A stretch of DNA of 64,000 nucleotides from the sequence record PV730300.1; one strand, 5' to 3'. The translations under genes and the position numbers were made by a program. Shown here one piece after another: positions 13,384 to 61,597 of this stretch. How positions within the stretch are numbered: the first letter of the stretch is position 1; each line of letters starts with the position of its first letter. The DNA comes from a phage. The notes under the pieces are model-generated. The model saw only the letters and a list, made by a program, of their open reading frames with translations, ran no database searches and was not told the origin of the DNA.

Positions 13384-13395
13384 ATTTCCCCCTAA

Positions 13396-13605: not shown

Positions 13606-13611
13606 AACGCC

Positions 13612-13641: not shown

Positions 13642-13677
13642 GGCATAATATCATAACTAATCCCGCAAGTCAAGAAC

Positions 13678-20215: not shown

Positions 20216-20225
20216 ATAACCTCCT

Positions 20226-20917: not shown

Positions 20918-21078
20918 GTTTTACCATTATCAACCAAGGTCTTTGCTACAGCATACTCCTTCCCATTAATAATGAAATAATAAACTATAAAAGATTTTCC
21001 GATTGTTACTGTCTTAGTAACCTCTACGCGTTTAACACCTTGCATGTATTTCGCCTTACCGGAATAGAGTAAAATCAT
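20896..21078 (-). CDS. hypothetical protein
   Basis: ORF. Confidence 0.35.
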   Translation of the reverse strand: MILLYSGKAKYMQGVKRVEVTKTVTIGKSFIVYYFIINGKEYAVAKTLVDNGKTWKVETL

Positions 21079-21356
21079 TTTGCATTCCTCTTGTTGTTGA
21101 TAACATCCATAGTAGTATATGGTTTATTAGTGCCATGATACTCTAGAATCATTGGAGAGCCTTCTTGCACTACTTCAAAAATACCATAAACAGAACTTTC
21201 AGCAAATACCATTTGCTTCGTGCCTTCATCGTTTACAACGAGAGAAAACTTCTTGCCTGTCCCGTTGAGGATCTCGTATTTCTTGCCAGCAGTGAATAAT
21301 CCAGAGTACCACTCGTTATCTGTTGCTTTTACACACTTCAGGAAAGTCTTGATCAT
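21075..21356 (-). CDS. hypothetical protein
   Basis: ORF. Confidence 0.4.
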   Translation of the reverse strand: MIKTFLKCVKATDNEWYSGLFTAGKKYEILNGTGKKFSLVVNDEGTKQMVFAESSVYGIFEVVQEGSPMILEYHGTNKPYTTMDVINNKRNAK

Positions 21357-21706
21357 TTCTTTTTGCTCCTCTTTTTAGATTTCTCATACAAACCTAACAC
21401 AGCCGCTTCTTTTGCACAAGTAGGAACTGAAGTCATTCCTCTTCTTTTTGCTTCTGGTAGTTGCAAAGTCCATATTCCCCACCAATAAATTTGGTCTGCC
21501 GTGAGTGGTTCAGCCATTGGATCTGCCTCCTGCTCCTCAAGACGTTGCAACGCTTCTTCAATCTTCTCGATTGGTGTGTCAAAGACGAATGCCTCCGTAT
21601 CAAATTTATCTTTCTTAGGAACTGATTTGGCTACTTTGAGAACCTCGTTTTTCGGTTTCTTAGTAACGTTCTTTGGCTTTGATAACTTCTTCGGTGTTTT
21701 CGCCAC
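21353..21706 (-). CDS. lysine-rich hypothetical protein
   Basis: ORF with basic N- and C-termini. Confidence 0.4.
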   Translation of the reverse strand: MAKTPKKLSKPKNVTKKPKNEVLKVAKSVPKKDKFDTEAFVFDTPIEKIEEALQRLEEQEADPMAEPLTADQIYWWGIWTLQLPEAKRRGMTSVPTCAKEAAVLGLYEKSKKRSKKK

Positions 21707-21899
21707 TTACTACCTCCATACGATCTAAAAAGTCATTCACAAATCTCCAGTAACGTTGACCTGTTCTAAGATCTTCATAGATAACCACAGGATCAAACAC
21801 TTTAGATATTCCGGCAGGTTTTGGAAATTCCACTACTGTATATAAACCACCTTTTGCTACACAAGAATAGGTTACGCCTGTAATTGGATAGTTGCTCAT
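21660..21899 (-). CDS. hypothetical protein
   Basis: ORF. Confidence 0.35.
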   Translation of the reverse strand: MSNYPITGVTYSCVAKGGLYTVVEFPKPAGISKVFDPVVIYEDLRTGQRYWRFVNDFLDRMEVVSGENTEEVIKAKERY

Positions 21900-22090
21900 T
21901 TCTTTACGTACTCCATGATTGGGGTATGGTCGCCAGTAAGCGTAACACGGCTGTAGGACACATCTTGTGTCTTCAGTGTATCAATCCACTCTAAGAAGTG
22001 TTCTTTCGCTTCTGTGTAGTTCTGTGTGCCTTTAACAACGTGTATACCATCTAGAGTTACACGGAATACCATTTGAATAACGTCTTTCAT
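21896..22090 (-). CDS. hypothetical protein
   Basis: ORF. Confidence 0.35.
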   Translation of the reverse strand: MKDVIQMVFRVTLDGIHVVKGTQNYTEAKEHFLEWIDTLKTQDVSYSRVTLTGDHTPIMEYVKK

Positions 22091-22186
22091 TTCTTACCTC
22101 CTTTGTTGTCAAAATAACTTACCAGAACATCGTGAACCACACACATGGCAAAAATCAGAACAATTGTTGTCAGGACTGGATTCTCA

Positions 22187-22510
22187 CTAATTAGTGCTAT
22201 CATCTTTAACCACCTCCAATTGCCTTTCGAGTTTGACTTTGTTTGAGAACTGATAATGACACAACTTACATTGCATGTCAACAATCTGATCGTGATTTAA
22301 CCCTACAATTTTAACTTCCTTTGCACCATCCCACTCCAAATACTCAAAGCCATCCAAATGATTACTCTTGTCCAACAGGAATGCTATCTGCTGCCATTCA
22401 ATCTGAATGTCATTTAAATGATATGCTGCACAGAAGATATCCTCATAGTAAAAGACGATCATTGTCATTGCTTCGTCCAGCACAACTACCTCTTGTCTTG
22501 TAAATCTCAT
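22187..22510 (-). CDS. hypothetical protein (first gene of the leftward arm)
   Basis: ORF. Confidence 0.4.
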   Translation of the reverse strand: MRFTRQEVVVLDEAMTMIVFYYEDIFCAAYHLNDIQIEWQQIAFLLDKSNHLDGFEYLEWDGAKEVKIVGLNHDQIVDMQCKLCHYQFSNKVKLERQLEVVKDDSTN

Positions 22511-22621
22511 TCTAGCCTCCTAAACGCGTCTCTGACGCACTTTTTATATATAAGATGATAAATCACCTTACCTAGTAAGTGAACTTGCTCTACGAGCCTC
22601 TTATGAAGCTTATGTTATAGG

Positions 22622-22649
22622 TTATACTATTGCTACCTGTTTAAGCAAG
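22622..22649 (-). promoter_or_regulatory. sigma70-like promoter on minus strand (TTGCTT-N16-TATAAC)
   Basis: rc of 22644-22649 and 22622-22627; sits in the divergent control region. Confidence 0.4.
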
Positions 22650-22991
22650 GTTTTTGCACACAGAAAATAATTTTTAATAAAACTCTTGACTTTTGTGTTC
22701 GAAGTATGCTACCCTAGAAATCTATTAACGAGCGCAGCGAGTTAAGGTTTTAGGTTGTTGATGTAGTACTCTGTACTCAAGTACTGTACTCCGTACTAGA
22801 TTAATAATTATTAAATATTAATAATAAATAATTATTAGATCTAACAAACAGGTACAGTGTATCAGAACTGGTACGTACAGATCAACTTCTATCAATTAAA
22901 AATAAAATAATAAATTATTATAAATAATACTTGATCTATAGATCAGTATGAAGTACAGTACGGAACATCTTAACAAGAATGGAGGTGTGCA

Positions 22992-23177
22992 ATGATTAGT
23001 GAGAATCCGTGCAAATGGCATCATGTGCCTATTAAAGATTGTATGTCTTGTAATCCACGTTCTATTTATAACATTGCATCTTATGATGATGACAATGTGT
23101 TAGACGATGATGAAGGCTGGGAGGATTTGGATTGGACTGGTTATGAAACCAAAAAGGATAAAATTATTCCTAGTTGA
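22992..23177 (+). CDS. hypothetical protein
   Basis: ORF; GGAGG ribosome-binding site. Confidence 0.4.
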   Translation: MISENPCKWHHVPIKDCMSCNPRSIYNIASYDDDNVLDDDEGWEDLDWTGYETKKDKIIPS

Positions 23178-23214
23178 CTTAAGATATCCTTCGTGCTAAA
23201 CTAGAAGTGAGGAG

Positions 23215-23466
23215 ATGCCGATCACTCCCCATTTGGGGTTCGAAGGATATATGCAAAATAGCTTTTATTTTAGGTGCCGTGCTTGTAATAGGCATTTGAC
23301 AAACCACTCCAGACGTGATAAAAATGGAGTCATCAAGGAATCAGACCTCTGTTCTATTTGCACAGGTTTGGCTTTTGATGATAGTCCCGAAAGGGTTTAT
23401 CAGCATCAATGTATAACAGACGTTCTCGTGTCAAACTTGGTAGAGGACGAACAACTAACAGATTAG
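23215..23466 (+). CDS. small Cys-rich protein
   Basis: CRACN...CSICTG Cys pairs. Confidence 0.35.
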   Translation: MPITPHLGFEGYMQNSFYFRCRACNRHLTNHSRRDKNGVIKESDLCSICTGLAFDDSPERVYQHQCITDVLVSNLVEDEQLTD

Positions 23467-23475
23467 GAGGAACAA

Positions 23476-23723
23476 TGTCTCTATTAGAAAAACACGTGTT
23501 TGAAGATGGTAACGGCAATGCAGTTTTTCTTTTCCATCCAGAAAAATACACATCTGAAAACAATGGTACAACTTCTATTGTAATCACTAAAGATGTTAAA
23601 GTTATTGATTTCTTGGCTCTGATGCGAGAGATGGATCTTGAAATTAATACTTTTAACGCAGAAGCTTTGGTTGTTGCTCTTCTGGAAAAGAAAGATAGTG
23701 AAGAAGTAGCAGAATATGCTTAA
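23476..23723 (+). CDS. acidic hypothetical protein
   Basis: Start placed at MSLLEKHV with AGGAGG upstream. Confidence 0.4.
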
Positions 23724-23730
23724 ATAACTA

Positions 23731-23760
23731 TTGACAAACGTATCCTTCATATGTTAGGAT
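23731..23760 (+). promoter_or_regulatory. sigma70-like promoter at the head of the tRNA/RNA cluster
   Basis: CTATTGACA motif at 23731-23736, then about 17 nt and a TGTTAGGAT-type -10. Confidence 0.45.
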
Positions 23761-23762
23761 AC

Positions 23763-23952
23763 GTTCATCAAGTGTGGTAACAGGGTCGTTGACTTTTGTT
23801 AAGAGGGGCTTGCACTGCGGTAGTGTTAGAGACTACTTCTTCAGAGGTTAGCTACCAAAGAGGAAAAGGAATAGTCTCGGCTCAAGAACTTTTACGCTGA
23901 AAGTTGGGCTTGGTCTTAGAGAATGTAGCGGTTCTCTACAATCGTCAGCGTC
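23763..23952 (+). ncRNA. candidate structured small RNA 1
   Basis: Perfect 10-bp terminal helix GTGGTAACAG (23763-23772) / CTGTTACCAC (23943-23952) enclosing nested helices; no coding potential; no tRNA T-loop. Confidence 0.35.
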
Positions 23953-23969
23953 TCTGTTACCACATTTAT

Positions 23970-24044
23970 GGCCCTGTAGCTCAATGGGAGAGCTGTCGGC
24001 TCATAACCGATAGGTAGCTGGATCGAAACCAGCCAGGGCCACCA
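23970..24044 (+). tRNA. tRNA-Met (anticodon CAT)
   Basis: Manual cloverleaf: acceptor GGCCCTG/CAGGGCC, anticodon loop CTCATAA, CCA encoded. Confidence 0.7.
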
Positions 24045-24046
24045 AC

Positions 24047-24121
24047 GTCTTTATGGTGTAATGGATAGCACAGGAGTCTTCTAAACTCTTAGTCAAGGTT
24101 CGATTCCTTGTAAAGACACCA
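24047..24121 (+). tRNA. tRNA-Arg (anticodon TCT)
   Basis: Acceptor GTCTTTA/TAAAGAC, anticodon loop CTTCTAA, T arm CAAGG-TTCGATT-CCTTG. Confidence 0.65.
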
Positions 24122-24122
24122 G

Positions 24123-24306
24123 AACATTTTAACATGAATTAGCTCAAGTGATTTGAACCCACTACTGATCATGGTGGCAGAGAATGAGGCAAGTATGTCA
24201 GACATTATAAACAAAGGCCACGGTTATATTAGAAGACATAAATGCTCGAAGAGCACCGTTCGTTGAGAACGGGGGTTGGTGGAGTCACCATTCATGGTAA
24301 AATGTT
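24123..24306 (+). ncRNA. candidate structured small RNA 2
   Basis: 16-nt terminal helix AACATTTTAACATGAA (24123-24138) / TTCATGGTAAAATGTT (24291-24306), 15 of 16 paired, enclosing several hairpins. Confidence 0.35.
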
Positions 24307-24317
24307 TTAAAAAACTA

Positions 24318-24347
24318 TTGACAACTAACATTATTTTATGTTAGATT
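24318..24347 (+). promoter_or_regulatory. sigma70-like promoter (internal to the tRNA cluster)
   Basis: AAACTATTGACA at 24318-24323, 17 nt, TGTTAGATT-type -10. Confidence 0.45.
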
Positions 24348-24355
24348 ATAAGTAT

Positions 24356-24446
24356 GGAAGGGCAAATCGACGTGGCGACGAAAACGGTCTTGAAAACCGC
24401 CGAGCTTGAAAGAGCCTTGGGAGTTCGACTCTCCCTCCTTCCGCCA
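24356..24446 (+). tRNA. tRNA-Ser (anticodon TGA), class II
   Basis: Acceptor GGAAGGG/TCCTTCC, anticodon loop CTTGAAA, long variable arm, CCA encoded. Confidence 0.7.
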
Positions 24447-24451
24447 GATTA

Positions 24452-24537
24452 GGTAGATTGGTGAAATGGTAGCCACGACAGTTTGCTAAACTGTAGTCGG
24501 AAACGGCGTGTAGGTTCGAGTCCTACATCTACCGCCA
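24452..24537 (+). tRNA. tRNA-Ser (anticodon GCT), class II
   Basis: Acceptor GGTAGAT/ATCTACC, anticodon loop TTGCTAA, long variable arm. Confidence 0.7.
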
Positions 24538-24667
24538 AGTTCTTTTTAATATAGCTTACTTTAATAGAGTAAACTTTCGGCAGATGGCCCCCACCATCTT
24601 ACCGATAACTCATAGTTAGTGGTGTGAACACTGGCTATTTTAAAAAGAATTTAAATATTAGTATTTA

Positions 24668-24755
24668 GGTGAGTTAATTCCGTAGGGGTAGCGGGGCAGA
24701 CTGTAAATCTGTTATCATTGCGATTCGGGTGGTTCGACTCCATCACTCACCACCA
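24668..24755 (+). tRNA. tRNA-Tyr (anticodon GTA), class II
   Basis: Acceptor GGTGAGT/ACTCACC, anticodon loop CTGTAAA. Confidence 0.7.
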
Positions 24756-24761
24756 AATTAA

Positions 24762-24847
24762 GATGAGTTGGCTGAATGGTTTAAGCGGCGGACTGTTAAT
24801 CCGTGTTCGAAAGAACGATATAGGTTCAAATCCTATACTCATCGCCA
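24762..24847 (+). tRNA. class II tRNA, isotype uncertain (anticodon loop reads CTGTTAA, i.e. GTT)
   Basis: Acceptor GATGAGT/ACTCATC, T arm ATAGG-TTCAAAT-CCTAT, about 15-nt variable arm; anticodon assignment ambiguous by hand. Confidence 0.45.
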
Positions 24848-24937
24848 GAATTATGGACTTGTAGAGTTAAGGTAAACCCCCAGTCGCCAAGAGGCTTCTG
24901 AAATTGCAGGTATCGAATCCTGCCGAGTCCCAGCTTT

Positions 24938-25012
24938 GCTCCTATAGTATAATGGCTATTACAACGGTTTTGTAATCCGTGGATCTCTGTTCGATTCAGA
25001 GTGGGAGCACCA
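24938..25012 (+). tRNA. tRNA-Thr (anticodon TGT)
   Basis: Acceptor GCTCCTA/TGGGAGC, anticodon loop TTTGTAA, T arm CTCTG-TTCGATT-CAGAG. Confidence 0.6.
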
Positions 25013-25287
25013 ACACAACATTAAGAGCACTGTGATTGATCGTCGTATCCTGTGCACAAGGTCTGTTCGAAAGACAGTGTTCTTAGTATTGTGTTGATCA
25101 CACAAAAAGAGTTACCTGAAACTTGACCGGAGTAGGGTTGGATGGGGCAAAAGAAGAAGCGGCTCTCCCATCGACAGCAACGAAGAATAATATTTGACTT
25201 TGGTTTTGTATTATTTTAAGTTAGCTTACCGAACGTAGGGCTAGTCACCCAATGGGATACTCGTCACTGTCCCACTCAATAAAACTA

Positions 25288-25317
25288 TTGACAACCAATA
25301 GTAAAATGTAGTATAGT
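25288..25317 (+). promoter_or_regulatory. sigma70-like promoter (internal to the tRNA cluster)
   Basis: AAACTATTGACA at 25288-25293, about 18 nt, TATAGT. Confidence 0.45.
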
Positions 25318-25328
25318 AAAGATGTAGG

Positions 25329-25403
25329 GCGTTCTTGGTGTAGCGGTAGCATTCCGTCCTTCCAAGTCGGCGGCACGAGTTCGATCCTCGTAGAACGCTC
25401 CAA
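25329..25403 (+). tRNA. tRNA-Gly (anticodon TCC)
   Basis: Acceptor GCGTTCT/AGAACGC, anticodon loop CTTCCAA, T arm ACGAG-TTCGATC-CTCGT. Confidence 0.7.
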
Positions 25404-25500
25404 ATTATTTAATAAAGGGTTGCCAGAAAACTTTCTCTTTTACTCATGGTTTTCTCCTTCTCTCACACCTCTTCTGGTTGCCCTTCATTAAATGATTTAT

Positions 25501-25576
25501 TGGTTTGTAGTGTAGTCCGGTAGCACACGACACTTTGACTGTCGTAGGTTTGGTTCAAATCCAGACAGACCAGCCA
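25501..25576 (+). tRNA. tRNA-Gln (anticodon TTG)
   Basis: Anticodon stem CGACA/TGTCG, loop CTTTGAC, T loop TTCAAAT. Confidence 0.7.
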
Positions 25577-25581
25577 TATAA

Positions 25582-25658
25582 CGGAATTTAGCTCAGTTTG
25601 GTAGAGCATACGCTTTGGGAGCGTAGGGTCGCAGGTTCGAATCCTGCAATTCCGACCA
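25582..25658 (+). tRNA. tRNA-Pro (anticodon TGG)
   Basis: Acceptor CGGAATT/AATTCCG, D stem GCTC/GAGC, anticodon loop TTTGGGA, T arm CGCAGG-TTCGAAT-CCTGC. Confidence 0.8.
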
Positions 25659-25664
25659 ATTTAA

Positions 25665-25738
25665 TGTTTCGTAGTTCAATGGTAGAACCCACGACTGATA
25701 ATCGTGAGACACAAGTTCGATTCTTGTCGAAACAACCA
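25665..25738 (+). tRNA. tRNA-Ile (anticodon GAT)
   Basis: Acceptor TGTTTCG/CGAAACA, anticodon stem CACGA/TCGTG, loop CTGATAA. Confidence 0.75.
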
Positions 25739-25740
25739 GT

Positions 25741-25810
25741 TTCCCGTTAGACTTACAGGATAAGAGTTCCACAGCTTATTGTGATGCTGGTTCGAATCCA
25801 GCACGGGATA
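25741..25810 (+). tRNA. putative tRNA, anticodon not assignable by hand
   Basis: Canonical T arm GCTGG-TTCGAAT-CCAGC and pairing acceptor ends, but no clean anticodon arm could be folded. Confidence 0.3.
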
Positions 25811-25816
25811 CCTAAT

Positions 25817-25895
25817 AGCGGGATAGAGGAGTCTGGTCGTCCTCGCCAGTTTCATATGCTGGAGATCATCGGTTCGAATCCGATTCCCGCCTCCA
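25817..25895 (+). tRNA. tRNA-Met (anticodon CAT), possibly initiator-like or Ile2-type
   Basis: Anticodon loop TTCATAT, T arm ATCGG-TTCGAAT-CCGAT, A1-C72 mismatch at the top of the acceptor stem. Confidence 0.6.
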
Positions 25896-26009
25896 AATAT
25901 CGCTTGCCAGCGGTATCTTTGAAGACCTTGCCTGGTTCCTTCTAAGATGGAGGGGTGCGACTCCTTAACGCACAATTATAATAAAGCATTTCAACTTAAC
26001 AGTATTTAT

Positions 26010-46225: not shown

Positions 46226-46852
46226 ATGGGAATCCCTTTTGACTTAAAACTTGGGCCAAACAACGACCTCATCATGGATGATGGGGATTTGGTCCTCACT
46301 ACAACCAGAACAGAAATTGCAGCACAAACTCTTGGGATAACTCTGAACACGTATCGTGGAGAGTGGTTTTTAAATACTAACTTCGGTGTTCCTTACTTAC
46401 AAGAGATTATTGGTGTTGCTAGAAAGAAAGATATTGTAGACAGAATATTTTTAGCAGAGATTGCCAAAAACGTTTACATAGATACAATAAACAGTTATAA
46501 ATCTGCTTATGATATGGACCAACGTTATTATTCAATGACAGTTATGGTCACAGTTGGAGCAGATACAGTAACATCTATATTCAATACTCAACCTTCTGAA
46601 GAGTTTATTTACCCTGAAGCTGGCGAAGACAATGCAGCGATCATTTGTGAAGCTTACAGTATTGTTGAGAATTCGAATAGACTTTATCGCTTTATCAACT
46701 TTGTTGGTTTGCCACGTGATACCTACTCTACTTGGTGGAATGAATGGTCTACAGAGTCAGCAGTGGAAAGAATCATGGTTAACGAAAAAGGTGATGCATT
46801 AGCTACAAACAATGATTTCGGTATAACAGCTATGACAGGAGTAGAAGAGTAA
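46226..46852 (+). CDS. baseplate wedge protein (putative)
   Basis: Position in the tail module. Confidence 0.35.
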   Translation: MGIPFDLKLGPNNDLIMDDGDLVLTTTRTEIAAQTLGITLNTYRGEWFLNTNFGVPYLQEIIGVARKKDIVDRIFLAEIAKNVYIDTINSYKSAYDMDQRYYSMTVMVTVGADTVTSIFNTQPSEEFIYPEAGEDNAAIICEAYSIVENSNRLYRFINFVGLPRDTYSTWWNEWSTESAVERIMVNEKGDALATNNDFGITAMTGVEE

Positions 46853-47325
46853 TGGCAGATTTAACTACGATCAAAATTTCTGATCTTACACAAACAACCT
46901 CTGTGTCTGATACAGATTTCTTTGTAACAGATCAGGCTGGAATAACAAAGAAAACTTCTTTGAAAGTGCTGTTGAGTGGTGCAGGGGTAACTAGAAACCG
47001 TCTGAATGCACGGGGAACAGTAACTAGCACCTTGGTATTAGATATTAGTTCGGCAGAATATTTTTCAGCAACTTTATCTTCTGCAACGTGCACAATTAGT
47101 TTTACTAATATTCCAGTAGCAACAAATGCAGTTTTAAACTTTACTTTAGCTTTGCGTCAAGGAAGTGGTGCAAATAAAGTCGTATGGCCTTCTTCTGTAA
47201 AATGGAGTTTTGGTCGTTCCCCAGTTTTGAGTTATCGTCAAGGTGCAACAGACACTTTTGAGTTTATCAGTTATGATAATGGAGCAACTTGGACAGGTAG
47301 CTTAGTTTTAGCAGGAGTTATTTAA
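46852..47325 (+). CDS. tail/baseplate protein (putative)
   Basis: ATGA start/stop overlap coupling with neighbours. Confidence 0.35.
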   Translation: MADLTTIKISDLTQTTSVSDTDFFVTDQAGITKKTSLKVLLSGAGVTRNRLNARGTVTSTLVLDISSAEYFSATLSSATCTISFTNIPVATNAVLNFTLALRQGSGANKVVWPSSVKWSFGRSPVLSYRQGATDTFEFISYDNGATWTGSLVLAGVI

Positions 47326-50201
47326 TGTCAAGAGTTAAGCACAATATTGACAACACGTTTCAGTTGATTGAAGGGTTGGTTCAGTTTTTGGAAAGAAATA
47401 CTGGGCTTACCATAGATCCTACGGTTCAGCATTACATTATCAACCCACAAAACGTATTGGCGAACAACAGACACTTTATTAACTGGACAGCGCAGGAAGG
47501 GCAACCAAACGGTGACGCTACTACCGAAGGTCAATCTGTGCTTATCACTGGTTTTGCTTATGCATATTTGGCTACAGGGGATAAAAAATATCTTGAATCT
47601 GCCGAGAAGTATTGGCAAGCCTATATAGATCACTTCTTCGGGGGCCAACCTATTCCTGATCCTCCGGCTAAGTATCGTCCCAACTGGATCATCAATGGTA
47701 AAGAACCACGTTTAGCACATTACCCTCTCACAGATGATGGGTATCCTACGCACGGCGGGTTCAAAGGTAGCATGATGACTTGGATTAACGGAAGGACTGT
47801 TATTCCTAAAGGTGCACCGCATTGGGGGGAATACTTAGATAAAGCTTGGTTTGCTTTCAATGGCAATCTTGGTTGGAACTCCGTTAACGCAACAGTGTAT
47901 GCAACTAACCCAGATGGTTCAACCAACTGGAAAGAATATGGAGATCAGTGGGACGTTGAATGGATTATAGATCGTCTAGGACGTAAAGTTGACTGGGATG
48001 GTAACATTTTATCCACTGGGCATAGCTTTGCAGAATATGGAACAGTGCAACTTAAAAACGCTTCTGTGAACGGTGACTATAAATTCAACTACGCTACATG
48101 CAACCCTGTAGAACACGGTGGATATCTGCTTAAGCGTAATGAGATGTGGCATAACCGTCCTGTAAACGTTCCGGTAGAGTTAGGTTATCAAGACAATGCT
48201 TCCGATGCTGAAACGTGGTGGTGTGATGCAAACTACTTGATGTATCAGATCACAGGAGAGAGAAAATACTGGCTTTGCTGGCAATCTTCTTTATTGTTGT
48301 GTCAAGACTACTCAAACATTGATATGTTTGATAAATTCTTCCGTAGATCTACGACAGCAATAATTCCTTTTACAGATGGTATCTCGTATGATTACTCATA
48401 CCCATCTACAGCAATACCTAAATATTCTCGTGACGAATTAGGATACACAGTAATTCGCCAAGATGTTTCAGCACAAACAACTCTAGAACAACAGGCAGTT
48501 TGGTTCAGAGTAGATCAGAATTCAAAACTGCGTATTGAGTTTCAAGGTGTAGATGATGCAGGGGAAGGTGTTCTTTTCCGTCCAGAGCTAGAATTAAGCA
48601 AAACTAAGAGTGAAACAGACACAGTGACATATCGTTGTGGCTTACCTCTTGGTGCAGCTAATATGACTAAGATGGATATACCTTTATCTAGTTTTATGCG
48701 CACTGAACCTCCTGGAGGTGGTGTATATATTATTGCTGAACCTAGAATCATTGTTGACTGGGGAAGCAATACTGTGATACAATATAAATATGCAACTGGT
48801 ATTGCTGGGACAAATAGTGATCAGATAGTTTCTGCTAATATGGATTCAGATGGTGGTTTTACTATTGGGTTTTGGTTAACACCAACTAAAACAACCAATT
48901 TAAAATCTATTACGTATCGTTCATACGCAGATGATTTTAACATCACTATTACGGATTCCGCAGGTTGGAGATGGTGGGCCATGTTAGAAAAAACAAATTC
49001 TGCATGGGTTACTAAAGCTTTAAGTCCTGCTGATTTCAAATTAAGTACTTGGCAACCTAATCACAATGACACAGAGACAAAACCTTCGTCAATAAACCTG
49101 ACTGCTGTTGATCAGATGAACATTGCATTGGATTCTGAACCTGCAAATGGCTTGACAGGGGCAATCGACTTTTATTGCGTTAACGATATCCCATCTTTGT
49201 ATTCTTCAGCCGCTGGTGATGATTACACAATGTATTTCAGGGTTACAGTTTCATCTGAAAATCCTTATACAGCAAAACTTGGAGATTGTACAATACTGGA
49301 CTACAAACTTGACAGTTTGAATTATACTCCAGGAATCATTCCATTTTCCAATATTAGTGATCCTAACACAGCATTATATGATGGTTGGCGTGGTATTCCT
49401 TACCCAGGTTATCAGTATCCATCCTTATATTGTTTTAAAGGGAGAGATATTGACTGGGTTCGTATGAACAACAGTATAGACTTTTTATATGATTCACAAA
49501 TGTGGTTTTATAATAAGTTTGCCCCTGTAATGCCTGGGCCAATGGCACAAGCTTATGTTTGGGATCGTTGGGATGCTCATAAATATGGAAACAAAAATGA
49601 GTTCACAATGTATCATTGGAACGATAAAGCTTGGGATGGTTATGAAGCAAGAGCATTCTTCTGTGCGTGTCATACGGTATACGAACTAAAGCGACGAGGA
49701 GCCGAAGTTCCTGAAAAACTTTTAACAGTTTGTAAAAACTGGATCAACTATCTGAAATGGTTCCAAGATAACAACGAAGGAAGAACACCAACAATATTTT
49801 ATCCCAATGGAGAAGTGGCTGCGCCTGTAGATGACTTTACAAGTCACATGTCTGCGCTCTTTATGGCGGGATGTGCTATAATGGGGATGGCTGGATATGA
49901 TTCAGAAATTCCTAACATTAAAATAGTAGCAGACCGCTGTTTTGAACTTATTCAGGAAAACTATATTGTTCTTGGTCCTAATCACGTCATGAATGGTTGT
50001 TGGAGTGCTGCTCCTAGACCAGACAGTGATAACGGAGTCTTCTTTGGCTTCCACGCTGGAGAGTTGTTACGTGGTTTTGGGTTGTATGCCTTATACAAAA
50101 AACTTAATCCCCAAAATGCATTACCTGTTTTGGATTCGAGCAATATTCCTGCACTTACTGTTTTGACAATGGCAAACATTAGTGTGGACGTTACCAAGTA
50201 A
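47325..50201 (+). CDS. large virion-associated protein with glycoside-hydrolase-like character
   Basis: 958 aa, very Trp/Tyr/Asp-rich; domain assignment not verified. Confidence 0.4.
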   Translation: MSRVKHNIDNTFQLIEGLVQFLERNTGLTIDPTVQHYIINPQNVLANNRHFINWTAQEGQPNGDATTEGQSVLITGFAYAYLATGDKKYLESAEKYWQAYIDHFFGGQPIPDPPAKYRPNWIINGKEPRLAHYPLTDDGYPTHGGFKGSMMTWINGRTVIPKGAPHWGEYLDKAWFAFNGNLGWNSVNATVYATNPDGSTNWKEYGDQWDVEWIIDRLGRKVDWDGNILSTGHSFAEYGTVQLKNASVNGDYKFNYATCNPVEHGGYLLKRNEMWHNRPVNVPVELGYQDNASDAETWWCDANYLMYQITGERKYWLCWQSSLLLCQDYSNIDMFDKFFRRSTTAIIPFTDGISYDYSYPSTAIPKYSRDELGYTVIRQDVSAQTTLEQQAVWFRVDQNSKLRIEFQGVDDAGEGVLFRPELELSKTKSETDTVTYRCGLPLGAANMTKMDIPLSSFMRTEPPGGGVYIIAEPRIIVDWGSNTVIQYKYATGIAGTNSDQIVSANMDSDGGFTIGFWLTPTKTTNLKSITYRSYADDFNITITDSAGWRWWAMLEKTNSAWVTKALSPADFKLSTWQPNHNDTETKPSSINLTAVDQMNIALDSEPANGLTGAIDFYCVNDIPSLYSSAAGDDYTMYFRVTVSSENPYTAKLGDCTILDYKLDSLNYTPGIIPFSNISDPNTALYDGWRGIPYPGYQYPSLYCFKGRDIDWVRMNNSIDFLYDSQMWFYNKFAPVMPGPMAQAYVWDRWDAHKYGNKNEFTMYHWNDKAWDGYEARAFFCACHTVYELKRRGAEVPEKLLTVCKNWINYLKWFQDNNEGRTPTIFYPNGEVAAPVDDFTSHMSALFMAGCAIMGMAGYDSEIPNIKIVADRCFELIQENYIVLGPNHVMNGCWSAAPRPDSDNGVFFGFHAGELLRGFGLYALYKKLNPQNALPVLDSSNIPALTVLTMANISVDVTK

Positions 50202-50209
50202 GGGGTAAA

Positions 50210-52363
50210 ATGAAACAAGCTATATTTACTGTCACGCGAGACAAGAGAGTAAATGCGAGTTCATTTAACTACACGACTGTTGACGGAACAGCAGTCGCTG
50301 GTAGAGATTATATTGCAAAATCGGGAACACTTGTGTTCCCTGATGATGCTGATTCTGCTACTATTGTGGTTGAAGTATTTGAACGACCAAAGAACTCAAT
50401 AGATCTTAACTTCTCCCTCCAAGTTTCAGGGATTAGTCAAAATAACATGATGGTTGAAACAACCATCAATTGTATTATAACTACTATCCAAGAAAATACT
50501 ACTCCAATAACTTGGACTACAAAAGACGTTAAAATGTTCTCTCCTATGTATTGGACAATAGATTCTCAAGCAACGGAAAGTTGTTCTATTGTATCTCATG
50601 GAGACTCTTTTACTGCAAGATTTGTAAACAGAACAACAGCAGGTTTGGCAGGGGTTATCTGGAGCACAGTTGACAAATATGACCATAAAGGTGTTGGGTA
50701 TTTACCCCACACAGATTTAAGTTCAGAGAAACTTTGGTTTAAAATGGAAATTAGTCAAAACATGCCAGGTTTTAAAGAAGAACCTTTGGTGCCGACTTTG
50801 ACTGTAACCCTCCTGGATAAAAGTGTTCATTATGTCAGTTTAGGATTCTATGCTTCAGATATTTCAGAAGATGGTAAAACAGCCACAATCAAGCTAGATT
50901 TTGGTAATATCTTTTCTGGCCCTAATAATGATATTCCTTTGGATATGAGTGCCGTAGACAATATTTTCTTCTCTTTGATTACAGCAAGGTATGAAAAAAT
51001 AGAGGAGATTGTACCTATTGACAGTCAAGAGGCTTGGTTTACTTTCACTCTTCTTGAACCTACTTCTGGTTATAGTATGATGAAAGTCAGCAACCTTGTC
51101 CAGCCTGAACATGATATTCGCATGTGCACATCTTATGATGATATGTATAACCTGACTCCAGAGAGAGTTATTTATAATACATATGCACTAGGTTATCGTG
51201 GAATGATTAACCATTACAACGGAATGTCTCACTATTATGAGTTCTCATGGAACGGAACATCTTGGGCTTTAAATAGATCTGTTTTCCTGAATCCGGCTAC
51301 AGAAGCTTGGCTTAACAGTTTCCATTCTATAGCTAATGAAAATGGCTACACAATAATGAACTCTTTGAGTTTTGAGTTGATGAGCACAGTTTGTCCTGTT
51401 GAATGGGTCCAGCATGATTGGAACGATGCTCTTGCAGCAACAGGGTATAAGCCTCCTAGTTACGTGTTGTCTCCAACTATTGACGAAGGCATGGAATATT
51501 TGCAAAATGTTATTAACAAAATAGCATCTATTTCTCAAGCTAATAACATTCCAGTCGTCATTCAAATTGGTGAACCTTGGTGGTGGTATAATACAGCAAG
51601 TAAAATGCCTTGCATATACGATTACACTACCAAACTGGCATTCAACACAGAAACTGGCTTATTTGCACAAGATGCAGGAACAATAGATAATTATAAAACA
51701 GGAACGCCGTTTGACGAATACTATGCGTTTTTGTCTCGTAAACTAGGATTAAGAGTTACAAAGTTTGCAACAGACACTAGAGCAACTTATCCAGGAGCTA
51801 AAGTAACATTGCTGCCATTCTTACCATCAATTATCGGCAATGGTTTAATGGAGAAAGTTAACTTTCCGTCTGATTACTACATTCCTGAAGCTTTTGATTT
51901 TTATTGTTCAGAGTGTTACGACTGGCTTCTGGAAGGTAAAATGATGAAAGCATTTGATGCAATTACCATACCACATGAAAAATTAGGTTTTGAATATTCT
52001 GATATTCACTATCTTGCAGGTTTTGTTCCAGATGCTACTCTTGCCCCTTTGTATGGCTTTGATCCTGAATCAAACTACCGCACGTATCTTTGGAAAATGA
52101 TTATAGGTAACATAGTGTTGAACGCCAATAAGTTTGACGGACTTACACAATATATATGGGCCTATCCTCAAATAATGCACGATTCTATCACGGTAGTTAA
52201 TTCTCAATCCCAAGTTTTCTATATGGGTAACGTGCCTTTGAACGCTTATTTACAGGATATCACTCTTAAGCAGGTAAATGTTGAGATTGCCACCCTAAGT
52301 GGAATTACATTAGCCACTAAATCTGGAGAAGATTTAGTAACAACACAAAAATTTTATATATAG
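50210..52363 (+). CDS. large tail fibre / baseplate protein (putative)
   Basis: 717 aa in the tail module. Confidence 0.4.
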   Translation: MKQAIFTVTRDKRVNASSFNYTTVDGTAVAGRDYIAKSGTLVFPDDADSATIVVEVFERPKNSIDLNFSLQVSGISQNNMMVETTINCIITTIQENTTPITWTTKDVKMFSPMYWTIDSQATESCSIVSHGDSFTARFVNRTTAGLAGVIWSTVDKYDHKGVGYLPHTDLSSEKLWFKMEISQNMPGFKEEPLVPTLTVTLLDKSVHYVSLGFYASDISEDGKTATIKLDFGNIFSGPNNDIPLDMSAVDNIFFSLITARYEKIEEIVPIDSQEAWFTFTLLEPTSGYSMMKVSNLVQPEHDIRMCTSYDDMYNLTPERVIYNTYALGYRGMINHYNGMSHYYEFSWNGTSWALNRSVFLNPATEAWLNSFHSIANENGYTIMNSLSFELMSTVCPVEWVQHDWNDALAATGYKPPSYVLSPTIDEGMEYLQNVINKIASISQANNIPVVIQIGEPWWWYNTASKMPCIYDYTTKLAFNTETGLFAQDAGTIDNYKTGTPFDEYYAFLSRKLGLRVTKFATDTRATYPGAKVTLLPFLPSIIGNGLMEKVNFPSDYYIPEAFDFYCSECYDWLLEGKMMKAFDAITIPHEKLGFEYSDIHYLAGFVPDATLAPLYGFDPESNYRTYLWKMIIGNIVLNANKFDGLTQYIWAYPQIMHDSITVVNSQSQVFYMGNVPLNAYLQDITLKQVNVEIATLSGITLATKSGEDLVTTQKFYI

Positions 52364-52371
52364 GAGTAAAA

Positions 52372-54012
52372 ATGTCAACTACAATTACTAATTTACCTGA
52401 AACATCAAAAGTTAATGGTTCTGATTACCTGGTTTTAGACCAACCTGATAAGACTGTTAAAAGCACAGTTTCCAACTTTCTTACTGACACTGGGGTGGTT
52501 TTAGCCACCCAGTTGAAAGATACAGATGGAGCAGGTTTAGTTAACACATCTAGCGGAGATTCAGTCCAAACCGTTATTGATTATCTGATAGATACTGACC
52601 TGGCTCATCTTAGTAATCTGGCTACTGCCAAAGCGTCTACCATTAAAGCCAACAACATTAATATTGCTTATAAATATGGTAATGTTTCTTATCTCTCTAC
52701 CGGCACTACTGGTACGCCTTCAACTGGTAACGCACATACTTTTTATGATGCAACTGGTAAGGGGTTTAAGATAAATGCACCGCAACGGCAGAAAAACACT
52801 TCTGGTGTAATAGCATTCTCGGAAGTATGGACTAAGTTAGATTTAGACCCTACTCTATTCGAAAAAGCAATATCGCTAGGAATTGGTACATTCATGTTCT
52901 ATACCTGGACAGCGCCAGTACAGACATATAAAGATTTCCTCGACCTTGCGAGTATTTACGGATTTGATGTTATTTTACAGGCAGTACCAAATAGTACGTA
53001 TTCATCCGACCTGGACGCGGATTTCGCTAAACTGTCTCCTTTATTCGACCATGACGCTGTAGTAGGGTTATACCTATTCGACGAGCCGAACTTGTCTACA
53101 TACCCTCTTACCCGCCAGGGTGAGATTATTGCTAAAGCGAAAACACTTAGTAACCTACCGCTGTACGCCGCTAGTAATGCAGAAGTTAACGGGGAATCTC
53201 TACCACTCCATATGGATATTGATTACGTATTTACATCCCAGTACGCGCATTTCATAGGTGCAGTTGGTATCCGTCGATACGCTGCCTCTATGTGGTCGGC
53301 TATGGAGGAGGAGGGGATGAGGGCAGGACGTATCATCCCGTTACTAACAGCGTATTGGTATGAGAACGAGGCCCCAACTTTAAAATCCGCACAGATTACA
53401 GCGGTTAATAACTTCATCTGTAAAAACTTTTCTAAGATTGGCATGTGGGCTTTCTATGCTAATAAAAATGGGCACTTTCTGGAAAACGATGACCAGATAT
53501 ATAATCTCGTGAAACAAAGTCTTGCCATCCGCAAGAGTAAAATAAAAGACTGTAAGTTGATACGTACACTATTCCGAAAGGCTAACGCCCTGCCCGCTAA
53601 CTGCTATAAATACCAGACAAAACCAACTGTCGTAGGGGATGTGTTCTGGCTAGATCCTGCATCAACCGCTACATGGAACGACCCCGCAGGAGTTATTCGA
53701 ATTAAGACAGGGGAGCAATTCGCCATAAACTTTGGGCGACCAGTACGTCTGGAGGCGATTATAGCAGCTTTCACCGACAACAACGGTTCAAGTAACAGCG
53801 CCACCCTGTCCCTCACTTTCAACCCAACTATCGCATCTGGTAGGGTGTATGATACTACTGTCACAAAAGTAGGCGGCGGCGATTTTGAGTGGTTTTTTAC
53901 GGATTTATCGAACCCACCACATTTAGTTACTACAGTGGCTATAAAGGTTGTATCGTCTACTGGCTCTGACTATCTGATATTGGAGCGTATTGGTTTTGTA
54001 GTAACTGAGTAA
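52372..54012 (+). CDS. tail protein with possible glycosidase-like domain
   Basis: 546 aa; central region suggestive of a TIM-barrel glycosidase; terminator follows. Confidence 0.4.
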   Translation: MSTTITNLPETSKVNGSDYLVLDQPDKTVKSTVSNFLTDTGVVLATQLKDTDGAGLVNTSSGDSVQTVIDYLIDTDLAHLSNLATAKASTIKANNINIAYKYGNVSYLSTGTTGTPSTGNAHTFYDATGKGFKINAPQRQKNTSGVIAFSEVWTKLDLDPTLFEKAISLGIGTFMFYTWTAPVQTYKDFLDLASIYGFDVILQAVPNSTYSSDLDADFAKLSPLFDHDAVVGLYLFDEPNLSTYPLTRQGEIIAKAKTLSNLPLYAASNAEVNGESLPLHMDIDYVFTSQYAHFIGAVGIRRYAASMWSAMEEEGMRAGRIIPLLTAYWYENEAPTLKSAQITAVNNFICKNFSKIGMWAFYANKNGHFLENDDQIYNLVKQSLAIRKSKIKDCKLIRTLFRKANALPANCYKYQTKPTVVGDVFWLDPASTATWNDPAGVIRIKTGEQFAINFGRPVRLEAIIAAFTDNNGSSNSATLSLTFNPTIASGRVYDTTVTKVGGGDFEWFFTDLSNPPHLVTTVAIKVVSSTGSDYLILERIGFVVTE

Positions 54013-54021: not shown

Positions 54022-54046
54022 CCCCTCTTAGGAGGGGTCTTTTTCT
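54022..54046 (+). terminator. intrinsic terminator
   Basis: CCCCTC-TTAG-GAGGGG hairpin followed by TCTTTTT. Confidence 0.7.
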
Positions 54047-54067
54047 TAGAAAAACAAAGAGGTACTT

Positions 54068-54220
54068 ATGAACGAATTATTCTCCCAAGGCGGTATTGCC
54101 CCAGGTATTACTGCCATTGGTCTTAGTGCTGCCGGAGTATTAGTTCACTCTGCTGGTAATGTGGACCTTGGGGAATTAGCTGCATATCGTGATTTAAAAA
54201 GTAATGAGAACGCACTATGA
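54068..54220 (+). CDS. small membrane protein (50 aa)
   Basis: Unlisted ORF with AAAGAGG ribosome-binding site and hydrophobic core GIAPGITAIGLSAAGVLV; stop overlaps the next start (ATGA). Confidence 0.3.
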   Translation: MNELFSQGGIAPGITAIGLSAAGVLVHSAGNVDLGELAAYRDLKSNENAL

Positions 54221-58543: not shown

Positions 58544-61500
58544 ATGGCAACATTCCCAACATATCCAGCAACGTCTCTCGAACAGGGCGTAGACCTGGTT
58601 ATTTTCTCATCTAACCAACTCCATGATGTTATTAATGGAAGTGCTACAGAGAGTATTGAAACAGAATCAGGGTTGATACCAACCCTGAGAAAAGCCCTTG
58701 TTGACAACTTTTTCTTTAAAAGCCCATTGGATTGGGCGCAAGGCACAAACGAAACAGTTTTTAACCAACTTCGTTATTTCCAGAATGGAGTATTGAGCGG
58801 TTATTACTATGCCCCTAACGCTACATTGGTTAACCCAATCCCTATGCAAGGGACTCCAGTAGGAGATAACAACTGGGTATTGTGGGGACTGAAAACAGAA
58901 CAACTAGCAACAGAAGTCACCCCGTGGGTATACTCTGGTGCAACGGGTTATGAAACAGTAATTAGTCCTCCTTACATCTTTGATAGTGCTATTGTTACGA
59001 TCAATGGTGTTATTCAGGTTCTGGGGGAAGCTTTCCGTATAGAAGATAGTAAGATCATCTTATCTGAACCTTTGGGACACGATCCTGCAACAGGACTGCC
59101 AAACAAGCTTTTTGCTTATATTGGTAAAATCGTAGCTTCAGCAGATACAGATCCTAACCTAGAGAATCGTCTTGTTAGTTTAGAAACAAAAACGGAAGAA
59201 CTAACAGAAAGCATGGATAAAGTCCCTCTGCAAACTATTGCTCGTAAATATGGTTTGTTAGATGATGAGGTGGCTTACGCAACAGCAGGTCAATCGTTAA
59301 CAGGGATTAAAGCTCTGTATGATCCAGTAGCACAGTCTTCCTACACATTACCTCCTAACATCACAGGAACTTTAACATCCTTATCTGTTTCTGGAGTAAT
59401 GACTTATTCTGGTGGGTCTGTAGATCTTTCTGCACTAGCTGTTGAACGTGGACAGTTTGTTCATTTGCCTACAAGCTTTGGTAATAACGTAACTCTGACA
59501 GCTAAAAATCAGACGATTGGACGTGGTGCTGGTCGTTATCGTTGGGCTGGAAGTTTACCAAAAAGTATTTTGGCCTCCGATACATTGGAGACAAGCGGTG
59601 GATTAGGTCCAAATGCATGGGTTCTGACCAATACAGAAGGACTGTTAACCCCTCGTGGTGGAACATACAACGACTTATTCGATGTTGTCTACTTGTCAGA
59701 ATTTGCTAACAACACAACAGCATATACCACACCAGAAGCAGCTTTCCAAGCAGCACTGTTAGCAGCAAAAGCTTCTAAAAGCAAGATTCTCGATGCTTAC
59801 GGTTGTGATATGACTTTCACGACAAGCTCTTTTGATATTCAAGGTATCACTTTGCGTGGGGGTGTGTTCCGTGGTCAACGCGACTATCGTGTGCAAAATG
59901 CTACAGTAGAAGGCACAACTTTCCGTAACTCTCGTGTTATGTATTGGGGTGGTGCTGTGCGCATGTTCGATTGTTTGTGGGACGGTGCTCCTCGCGCAGG
60001 TCAAGTTGGTAGCTTGGTATTCCAAGGCAACCCAATATCAGGTACTTTTGAAATTGATAACTGTACTTTTAAAAACGGGTTGTATGGCATCCTTCAACAA
60101 GGAACAGGGGAACCAGTAACACGTGGTGTCTTCCGTAACCTTACCTTCATGGACATGCAAGGTGATGCAATAGAACTGAACGTCATCAATAAACATTATG
60201 ACGATGGTTGTGTGATTGAGAATATTTACCTGTCTAATATCGATGGGACTAACGCTCCTATTCCTCTGTCCAACTGGGGTATCGGTATCGGTGTAGCTGG
60301 TAAAGGACCATATGGTTACGGAATCCCTGATGATCAATATTGCAAGAATATTACAATTCGTAACGTTTTTGCAAAACGTTGTCGTCAGATTGTCCACGTA
60401 GAAGTTGGTCGTAATATCTCTATCGAAAACATTCATGGCGATCCAGACCAGACCGTATCTGTTGGGACAGGTTTGGCAACTGGCGCAGTTGTAATGTATG
60501 GAAGTAAAGATTTTACGATTGACGGTGTTTACGGAGAGCCTAAAACAGACGGTAGCACACTTGCAAGTAATATCCGTATGATTTATTTGGAGTGGGGAAC
60601 TAACGCAGTTCTGGATGAAGAGGGTAATCCGGTAGTTCCGGCACAGGGCAGACCTTCAAATCCATGCTTTAACTATTCTGTTCGTAACATTCACACCAAA
60701 ACTGGGCGTGTTTTTGCGGGAGTTTCCGCTGGACCAGGTTATGAAAACAGAGTTAGCTTTGAAAATATTCGTTGCGCTGCATTGCAGTTGTTCGGTATAG
60801 CTTCTTGGCTTTCAATGTCTAACATCACCTGTAATATCTTCGATTGTGTTGGTCAACCTGAATCTGGTCCAGGGACATTTTATGATGGATTCTTCCGTAG
60901 AGAAAAATCTGTTCTTGAAATGGTTAACGTAAACTGTTACCCAGATGGCAAGACGATGGTTACTGGTCGTCCACAGTGGAGCCGTTGCCGTTACTCTGAT
61001 ATTCATCGTGTCAACTGTAATGTTGAAGCTAATATGTATACCAATATCGCAGGTGGTATTGGAGCTATTGTAGGGACAACGGGCAAAGTTTATTACTTAG
61101 AGCCTAATCCTAGTCGAAACATTGATGGAATGCATTTCCCAACAGGGAAAGAGTTTGACAAAGGTGATATGATAGTCAAGGCGGATAATACGTTCTTCCT
61201 TGTAACAACAAGTGGGGCATATATTCCAGATATCCCAGCTTTCGGTATTCGAGCTACACAGGCAGGAGATACCTTCCTAACACAGAACTTGACTCCTAAC
61301 GGGACAGCAACAAATGCTTCTTGGTTGTATCATTACCCTCTGTCAGCAGGGACACGTATCCGTATTCCTGGTGCTGGCGTAGGTGGAGCAGATTTGGACA
61401 CAGTTATTACTCGTGCACCTTATCAAGATAATGATACGTGGACTAACCCAGTTAAAATAGACATTGCAGATCCAATTGTAACGCCTACAAGTGCTGGAGT

Positions 61501-61597
61501 TAGAATTAAAACCATACCTAATGATTCCAGCAATGTTTCTGTAGGTAATACTGCGGTTATTCGCCCAACGCCAGTAGTAGATGTGCCAACAACCTAA
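58544..61597 (+). CDS. tailspike-like protein with probable beta-helix (possible depolymerase)
   Basis: 1017 aa; Gly/Asn/Thr/Val-rich repeats suggestive of a right-handed beta-helix; terminator-like hairpin follows. Confidence 0.45.
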   Translation: MATFPTYPATSLEQGVDLVIFSSNQLHDVINGSATESIETESGLIPTLRKALVDNFFFKSPLDWAQGTNETVFNQLRYFQNGVLSGYYYAPNATLVNPIPMQGTPVGDNNWVLWGLKTEQLATEVTPWVYSGATGYETVISPPYIFDSAIVTINGVIQVLGEAFRIEDSKIILSEPLGHDPATGLPNKLFAYIGKIVASADTDPNLENRLVSLETKTEELTESMDKVPLQTIARKYGLLDDEVAYATAGQSLTGIKALYDPVAQSSYTLPPNITGTLTSLSVSGVMTYSGGSVDLSALAVERGQFVHLPTSFGNNVTLTAKNQTIGRGAGRYRWAGSLPKSILASDTLETSGGLGPNAWVLTNTEGLLTPRGGTYNDLFDVVYLSEFANNTTAYTTPEAAFQAALLAAKASKSKILDAYGCDMTFTTSSFDIQGITLRGGVFRGQRDYRVQNATVEGTTFRNSRVMYWGGAVRMFDCLWDGAPRAGQVGSLVFQGNPISGTFEIDNCTFKNGLYGILQQGTGEPVTRGVFRNLTFMDMQGDAIELNVINKHYDDGCVIENIYLSNIDGTNAPIPLSNWGIGIGVAGKGPYGYGIPDDQYCKNITIRNVFAKRCRQIVHVEVGRNISIENIHGDPDQTVSVGTGLATGAVVMYGSKDFTIDGVYGEPKTDGSTLASNIRMIYLEWGTNAVLDEEGNPVVPAQGRPSNPCFNYSVRNIHTKTGRVFAGVSAGPGYENRVSFENIRCAALQLFGIASWLSMSNITCNIFDCVGQPESGPGTFYDGFFRREKSVLEMVNVNCYPDGKTMVTGRPQWSRCRYSDIHRVNCNVEANMYTNIAGGIGAIVGTTGKVYYLEPNPSRNIDGMHFPTGKEFDKGDMIVKADNTFFLVTTSGAYIPDIPAFGIRATQAGDTFLTQNLTPNGTATNASWLYHYPLSAGTRIRIPGAGVGGADLDTVITRAPYQDNDTWTNPVKIDIADPIVTPTSAGVRIKTIPNDSSNVSVGNTAVIRPTPVVDVPTT

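Follow-up and report, generated by a model that had tools for sequence, protein, structure and literature searches.

We analysed a block of three consecutive tail genes, together with the small gene upstream of them, in a phage (sequence record PV730300.1). The window, by which we mean the whole stretch of DNA that was studied, is 64,000 nucleotides (nt) long, and all features given window coordinates here lie on its + strand. The block comprises open reading frames (ORFs) of 958, 717 and 546 amino acids (aa) at 47325-50201, 50210-52363 and 52372-54012, separated by gaps of 8 nt and located exactly where an initial annotation had placed three large tail proteins. It is preceded by a 157-aa adaptor gene (46852..47325, the position of gp140 in phage phi92), which was outside the coordinates of that annotation and whose stop overlaps the start of the 958-aa ORF. 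An intrinsic-terminator-like element (54022..54045), with a hairpin and T-run at 54022-54037, closes the block. Our results suggest that a phAPEC8-like myophage probably uses the products of this region, which is orthologous to phi92 gp140-gp143, as the lateral glycan-processing part of its adsorption apparatus.

The 5215 nt from 47325 to 52539 were ~98% identical to many genomes of Phapecoctavirus (phAPEC8-like myophages of the Stephanstirmvirinae), and the remainder of the third gene, past 52539, had no match at the ~98% level in a DNA comparison with 50,697 phage records. Many homologues were found for each of the three proteins. Because of this DNA identity and these homologues, we regard the three ORFs, as judged from sequence, as real genes in the tail/baseplate operon of a Phapecoctavirus. 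The baseplate/fibre setting proposed in the initial annotation was borne out by the flanking genes, which encode a tape measure, Dit-like tube initiator, plug, hub and central spike on the 5' side, and a baseplate J-like wedge, short tail fibre and chaperone, colanidase-type spike and collagen-like fibre on the 3' side.

The locus was colinear with phi92 genes 141-151. Identity was 83% between the 958-aa protein and phi92 gp141 and 77% between the 717-aa protein and gp142, and the first 54 aa of the 546-aa protein were 94% identical to the endosialidase gp143, after which the similarity ended. The gene order, and the position between the central spike/gp139-140 genes and gp144-146, were those of the lateral fibre locus of the Stephanstirmvirinae. 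The three ORFs are, on these comparisons, syntenic orthologues of gp141, gp142 and the gp143 slot.

All three proteins had been described as very rich in Trp, Tyr and Asp/Asn. Measured against the 59 ORFs of the window (Trp 1.5%, Tyr 4.4%, Asp plus Asn 12.2%), this description suited the 958-aa protein, which was clearly enriched (3.5%, 5.9% and 14.1%), was marginal for the 717-aa protein (2.2%, 5.9% and 12.1%), and did not apply to the 546-aa protein, whose composition was at background (1.5%, 4.4% and 12.6%).

The adaptor, the 958-aa protein and the 717-aa protein

In the adaptor, the N-terminal anchor is lineage-specific, and a C-terminal domain of ~70-90 aa is conserved. In each of the six further phages that were checked, namely LL12, the Vibrio phages Vp_R1 and D494, podophage ISAO8, Rosemountvirus UPF_BP2 and an SU10-like contig, the gene directly 5' of the 958 homologue matched this C-terminal domain (E values of 1e-8 to 1e-32), making 7/7 when the window phage is counted. 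The adaptor N-termini varied between phages; that of ISAO8 is a T7 tail-fibre N domain, and the pair of adaptor and 958 homologue occupies the gp17 position there. Because the C-terminal domain is kept 5' of the 958 homologue while the N-termini differ, adaptor and 958-type gene would form a two-gene 'adaptor + enzyme' cassette, the enzyme being a predicted one, and the variable N-terminus would plug into each phage's own tail.

A 38-residue motif (I..L..T..V...D..V.DQ...T.K......L...GV) was common to the N-termini of the adaptor (46852-46990) and the 546-aa spike (52372-52500). The local alignment of the two N-termini scored 62, compared with 27 +/- 5 in shuffles, none of 2000 of which reached 62. 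This common motif suggests that the adaptor and the 546-aa spike use one kind of docking site.

An AlphaFold2 (AF2) model of the 958-aa protein, built from 27 homologues, was confident (predicted local distance difference test, pLDDT, 85.7; predicted template modelling score, pTM, 0.81). It showed a split (alpha/alpha)6 barrel, the fold of glycoside hydrolase (GH) family 8, with helices at aa 8-104, 293-330 and 711-925; a beta insertion (aa 146-276) and two beta-sandwich domains (aa 353-660) interrupt the barrel. Seven residues (E68, Q70, D294, E296, R340, W746 and R748) were invariant in six homologues ~30-42% identical to the window protein, whose sources included a Vequintavirus, two Vibrio phages, a T7-like podophage and a Rosemountvirus. 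The candidate catalytic residues among these are E68 (nt 47526-47528), D294 (48204-48206) and E296 (48210-48212), and candidates for a catalytic base lie in the C-terminal half of the barrel, in the invariant R748/W746 region and at E913.

Two family-invariant motifs, G-D-A-T-T-E-G-Q-S and N-A-S-D-A-E-x-W, aligned colinearly with the motifs T-T-S-E-G-Q-S and S-A-S-D-G-D of the GH8 enzyme BcsZ, the first of which contains the Glu that is mutated to Gln in PDB entry 3qxq. The second Asp of the GH8 signature A-[ST]-D-[AG]-D is Glu in the 958-aa protein. A profile of the barrel only gave weak matches to GH76 structures (E 1e-4 and 6e-3). We infer from the model that the 958-aa protein may be a distant GH8/GH76-like glycosidase with carbohydrate-binding-type beta domains.

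A 958-like protein was present in 534 of the 50,697 phage records, in myophages, podophages and large Vibrio phages, and relatives from Pseudomonas, Stenotrophomonas and marine bacteria were 43-55% identical. Natural fusions occur. One homologue (P0179) is fused to a P2 gpI-like domain, and another, from an SU10-like podophage (P0197), is fused at its C-terminus to the NCTSP_N and TIM (triosephosphate isomerase) barrel domains of a 717 homologue, with 52% identity and lacking Calx-beta. In the SU10-like contig (Logan SRR10874396, 5931-11364), a 958 homologue and the NCTSP_N and TIM-barrel part of a 717 homologue form a single protein of 1557 aa, which the same small adaptor gene precedes and which is flanked by head-tail adaptor and Gp10_C-type genes.

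The 717-aa protein carries a Calx-beta domain (aa 4-82, nt 50219-50455; PF03160, E 7.8e-11), an NCTSP_N domain (aa 107-292, nt 50528-51085; PF23844, E 4.1e-16) and the TIM barrel of the 'non-contractile tail sheath protein' (NCTSP) family (aa 299-658, nt 51104-52183; PF23845, E 6.6e-79). The PF23844 and PF23845 scores, 59.2 and 265.9 bits against a cut-off of 27, place it in the NCTSP family. The TIM part matched phage N4 gp64 in the PDB (E 5e-30; family profile E 2e-92), and the N-terminal part matched the N4 gp65 sheath (family profile E 3e-41). Residues D310/D311, E389, the stretch Q-x-G-E-P-W-W-W (G454-E455-P456), D563, E568 and D571 were invariant in relatives 27-38% identical. The N4 tail is surrounded by a sheath in which gp65 and gp64 form a heterodimer; of the two, gp65 serves as the receptor-binding protein. 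The gp64-homologous protein has been linked to the dependence on wecB and the N4 glycan receptor (NGR) that is shared by N4, Vequintavirinae and phi92-like phages (PMC8594841, PMC8669472, PMC11990801).

A 717-type gene was not adjacent to the 958 homologue in LL12, Vp_R1, D494, UPF_BP2 or ISAO8. The pair of NCTSP_N and TIM barrel was also found fused to DUF2460 in metagenomic Pseudomonadota (P0286-P0303); DUF2460 is a distal tail protein of the gene-transfer-agent type and matches the RcGTA distal tail protein (Rcc01695). The same pair constitutes a 623-aa prophage protein of many Acinetobacter genomes that is misnamed 'phage capsid protein'.

The exchangeable third spike

The first 56 aa of the 546-aa tailspike (52372..52539) form an N-terminal anchor common to every allele of the slot in the Stephanstirmvirinae, and the ~98% DNA identity to other Phapecoctavirus genomes stops at its end, 52539. 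Residues 1 to ~54-66 were 84-100% identical across alleles bearing endosialidase (phi92 and phAPEC8, whose gp143 slots hold this enzyme), pectate-lyase, SGNH, beta-helix and other heads. Over aa 1-54 alone, identity to the endosialidase N-termini of phi92 and phAPEC8 and to alleles with pectate-lyase, SGNH and other heads was 94-100%. From 52540 to ~54022 (coding to 54012) follows a foreign head cassette, with a GC content at third codon positions (GC3) of 0.407, compared with 0.27-0.32 in the neighbouring genes. Phage ukendt is again homologous at 54022-54095 (82%) and, with 96% identity, from 54094 on, so that the terminator hairpin is the right border of the swapped cassette.

The head, from residue 44-47 on, was 54-94% identical to proteins with P22 head-binding, T7 fibre-N and Tail_spike_N anchors, and the same head family occupies the gp9 tailspike slot of a P22-like prophage, beside an integrase. 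The anchor is common to unrelated heads and the head is found on unrelated anchors, as in modular tailspikes. By these comparisons the 546-aa protein is a chimera, its head apparently acquired horizontally and its anchor lineage-bound. In EmilieFrey (Justusliebigvirus; 11886-14218) the gp143 slot is empty and the gp141 and gp142 orthologues are retained. Because this slot can be empty, the third spike appears to be an optional add-on, dispensable in some members.

Just past the cassette, a 50-aa ORF (54068-54220) is an internally deleted copy of a 102-aa 'tail protein' of ukendt (L001, 20043-20351), which is itself similar to the first ~100 aa of Ackermannviridae tailspikes, P0004 being an example. 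This ORF may be a free-standing or decayed tailspike adaptor domain.

In the AF2 model of the 546-aa protein (pLDDT 70), the anchor was disordered and was followed by a neck, by eight beta/alpha units (aa 146-385) and, at the C-terminus, by a beta-sandwich. The resulting (beta/alpha)8 barrel (~aa 140-390, nt 52789-53541), the fold of clan GH-A, is in line with the region reminiscent of TIM-barrel glycosidases that the initial annotation had noticed, and the sandwich occupies aa 440-546 (nt 53689-54009). Enzymes of clan GH-A carry their acid/base Glu in an N-E-P-type motif where strand 4 ends, and their nucleophile Glu where strand 7 ends. The predicted fourth strand ends in D237-E238-P239, which was invariant down to relatives ~15% identical and has Asp where the GH-A motif has Asn. 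E331 and E333 were also invariant and lie 6-8 residues past predicted strand 7, in a low-confidence stretch. Two remote relatives of the head matched Pfam domains, one of them Glyco_hydro_2_C (a GH2 TIM barrel; E 4e-4) and the other DUF4434 (E 9e-3). The model thus predicts a head consisting of a clan GH-A-like TIM barrel and a beta-sandwich. An hhalign comparison of the 717-aa and 546-aa barrels gave no significant relation, and for this reason we do not treat them as paralogues.

The head family is rare, comprising 28 clusters among 1.84 billion representatives, and the head was absent at the DNA level from 5,426 complete Escherichia coli genomes. Its viral structural neighbours include an Acinetobacter phage 'capsular polysaccharide depolymerase' and the 'lyase' of PE3-1. 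The closest named relatives, 88-89% identical, are the tailspike of ZQ1 (Ackermannviridae) and gp17 of LSB-1; of 17 bacterial strains tested, phage LSB-1 lysed none but the two enteroinvasive E. coli (PMC2955717).

Downstream, a 1017-aa colanidase-type tailspike (58544..61597) fills the phi92 gp150 slot and matched PHROG 6117 'colanic acid degradation' (E 2e-282). It contains Tail_spike_N (E 2.3e-9, aa 302-361) and a Beta_helix match (E 0.0099) below the Pfam cut-off. Relative to phi92 gp150 it is a mosaic, 75% identical over aa 1-215 and only 33% over aa 455-1002; it is also 213 aa longer, with Tail_spike_N inserted. The colanidase slot is, from these alignments, a second variable slot in the same apparatus.

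Elsewhere in the window, the GC skew changed sign near 22000 (window ~20000-24000), being negative before and positive after, which probably marks a switch in transcription direction between genome modules. A local GC peak of 0.435 was seen at 24001-26000.

Probable glycan processing and the alternatives

We favour the reading, which we consider probable, that these genes specify the lateral glycan-processing part of the adsorption apparatus. The adaptor would carry the 958-aa glycosidase-like protein, and the 717-aa protein would adjoin the C-terminus of the latter, with adaptor, 958-aa and 717-aa proteins making up the conserved part of a lateral fibre; this arrangement of the 958-aa and 717-aa proteins is proposed because the natural fusions point the same way as the adaptor pairing. 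The 546-aa spike would dock to this conserved scaffold through its anchor of 45-55 aa. In such a scheme, the variable 546-aa head would recognise, and probably cleave, a strain-specific O-antigen or capsule; the conserved enzymes would then act on conserved glycans, the 717-aa protein being a candidate binder or processor of NGR and the 958-aa protein having no candidate substrate; and the short tail fibres would finally reach the lipopolysaccharide (LPS) core and trigger contraction.

The initial annotation had proposed several virion-borne activities that degrade or bind polysaccharides, and this proposal gained support from the GH-type folds and domains, the invariant acidic residues at what would be catalytic positions of such enzymes, the adjacent colanidase-type spike and the orthology to phi92. 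All three proteins showed glycoside-hydrolase-type folds or domains, rather than only non-enzymatic folds. As for the complex capsule or O-antigen host range that it had further implied, only the third gene is host-range variable; because the 958-aa and 717-aa proteins are conserved, these two are unlikely to track capsule or O-antigen diversity.

Several observations weigh against this favoured reading. Neither the 958-aa nor the 546-aa protein had a Pfam or NCBIfam match even at E up to 10, or matched a CAZy-type Pfam family. The hhalign comparison of the 958-aa barrel with BcsZ was not significant (E 0.13), and Pfam Glyco_hydro_8 was unmatched; because of this E value we do not file the 958-aa protein under GH8. 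In searches of the PDB by sequence, the 958-aa protein had no match with either a single query or a family profile, nor did the 546-aa head, for which the matches of the family alignment stemmed solely from the anchors of other members. The 546-aa model is moderately confident, with the loop of the putative nucleophile poorly predicted. N4 gp64 and gp65 have been described as sheath and NfrA-binding proteins and not as enzymes (PMC13434306). Identities of 43-55% across very different hosts are easier to reconcile with a structural role, or with a substrate that is itself very conserved, than with a depolymerase. No structure resolves the position of the 958-aa, 717-aa or 546-aa protein in the virion. 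What the analysis showed are the ORFs with their orthology and synteny, the domains and predicted folds, the conserved residues, the borders of the cassette and the reuse of the head as a module; catalysis, substrates, docking partners and the order of events are what we infer.

The main alternative is that the glycosidase-like folds serve only as lectin-like binders or scaffold, with the 958-aa and 717-aa proteins as structural arms and only the terminal spike catalytic, if any of them is. The high conservation of the 958 family across hosts, the N4 gp64/gp65 pair that acts as sheath and receptor-binding proteins with no reported catalysis, the fusion of a 958 homologue to a P2 gpI-like baseplate domain, and the lack of a significant sequence match to any curated GH family all agree with such a role, which we nevertheless consider unlikely alongside the invariant acidic residues described above. 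Clearly less likely still is that the 717-aa protein is a glycan deacetylase that, in the manner of the G7C phage esterase spike, acts on enterobacterial common antigen (ECA) or NGR. The same genes in the BASEL phages are annotated 'lateral tail fiber protein with several glycosidase domains' and 'with glycosidase and deacetylase domains', the latter being the wording for EmilieFrey; the basis of the annotation was a poly-GlcNAc deacetylase matched with Phyre2 (Maffei et al. 2021, PMC8594841, S5F legend), and wecB/NGR dependence is common to N4 and these myophages. However, a PDB search with the 717 family profile returned neither a deacetylase nor PgaB at E values as high as 10, Pfam showed only Calx-beta, NCTSP_N and the TIM barrel, and the invariant G-E-P-W-W-W and E568 are more suggestive of a glycosidase barrel. 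PgaB itself has a GH153 TIM barrel as its C-terminal half, and the 'deacetylase' label may therefore derive from the name of PgaB.

A lyase or endosialidase activity of the 546-aa head seems very improbable. It would agree with the GenBank product name of LSB-1 gp17 ('lyase', KC425724), with the modelling of gp17 on an endosialidase (PMC2955717) and with the endosialidase that the slot holds in phi92 and phAPEC8. That modelling was based on a template match of E 1.1 (PMC2955717), and the beta-propeller and endosialidase Pfam domains of GH58, for which we looked, were not found in the head. Returning to glycan processing by predicted glycosidases, a bolder version of it can be put forward tentatively, as possible rather than expected. 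In this version, the adaptor and 958-type gene would be a mobile two-gene cassette (in 7/7 phages, spanning myophages, T7-like and SU10-like podophages and large Vibrio phages), and the 958-aa protein would found an unrecognised GH8/GH76-like glycosidase family for a glycan conserved across Gram-negative hosts; in phi92-type virions, this protein could be the unassigned fibre II or the fibre I arm. A new GH-A family, made up of O-antigen-specific tailspikes, would start from the 546-aa head, and the LSB-1 host range hints that the specificity may be for enteroinvasive E. coli.

Relation to known systems

Phages of this group have a broad host range and are consequently used in therapy and biocontrol, for which it is useful to identify the exchangeable specificity module. 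The cassette borders, at codon ~56 and at the terminator at 54022, offer a direct handle for host-range engineering. The widely distributed pair of adaptor and 958-like protein is an obvious candidate for biochemistry and for a fit to those densities of the phi92 map that are still unassigned, and the predicted TIM-barrel head represents a rare, uncharacterised tailspike type whose nearest relative comes from a phage that, in a test of 17 bacterial strains, lysed just the two that were enteroinvasive E. coli.

A multivalent glycan-degrading adsorption apparatus is already in the literature for the set of gp141, gp142 and gp143 (PMC5380687, table; PMC8594841; PMC11990801). In the review table of PMC5380687, which cites Schwarzer et al. 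2012, gp141 and gp142 are entered as 'glycosidase', and a cryo-electron microscopy study of phi92 places gp143 at the tip of the L-shaped fibre I, with fibre II left unassigned and no mention of gp141 or gp142 (PMC13450770). Descriptions of this arrangement exist for both phi92-like and rV5-like phages. Because such an apparatus is known from phi92 and the BASEL phages, what we describe is a new allele of a known kind, and its novelty is modest. It consists of an unrecorded allele of the exchangeable slot with a rare, uncharacterised TIM-barrel head, of explicit cassette borders, and of the finding that a dedicated adaptor invariably accompanies the 958-type protein.

The closest known system is the 'Swiss-army-knife' apparatus of phi92 (gp140-gp143), which, like the corresponding locus of the BASEL Justusliebigvirus and Vequintavirinae, has the same gene order and the same 8-nt spacers. 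The wedge, short fibre, colanidase slot and collagen-like fibre on the 3' side are also the same in phi92. However, the gp143 slot holds a predicted GH-A-like TIM-barrel head in the window phage and an endosialidase beta-propeller in phi92, and the allele of the colanidase slot is only 33% identical in the catalytic part. The 717-aa protein resembles N4 gp65/gp64 (PDB 9lc0, 9yf4), with its NCTSP_N domain corresponding to gp65 and its TIM barrel to gp64, and NGR dependence is found in both groups of phages. In contrast to N4, both parts lie on one chain behind Calx-beta, in a contractile-tailed phage, and ~900 other gp65 residues, among them the tail-plug-binding domains, are missing.

Compared with the barrels of GH8 (E. 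coli BcsZ, PDB 3qxf) and GH76, that of the 958-aa protein is split by ~500 residues of beta domains, its sequence similarity to them is not significant and it has no Pfam match. Finally, the 546-aa protein shares its architecture with the modular tailspikes of P22-like, T7/K1F-like and CBA120/Ackermannviridae phages, including the same exchange junction at G-A-G-L-V-x-T...S-V-Q, and spikes of the P22, T7 and CBA120 types carry the same head family on Head_binding, Phage_T7_tail and Tail_spike_N anchors. It differs from them in that its head is a predicted TIM barrel, whereas the usual head of such spikes is a right-handed beta-helix.

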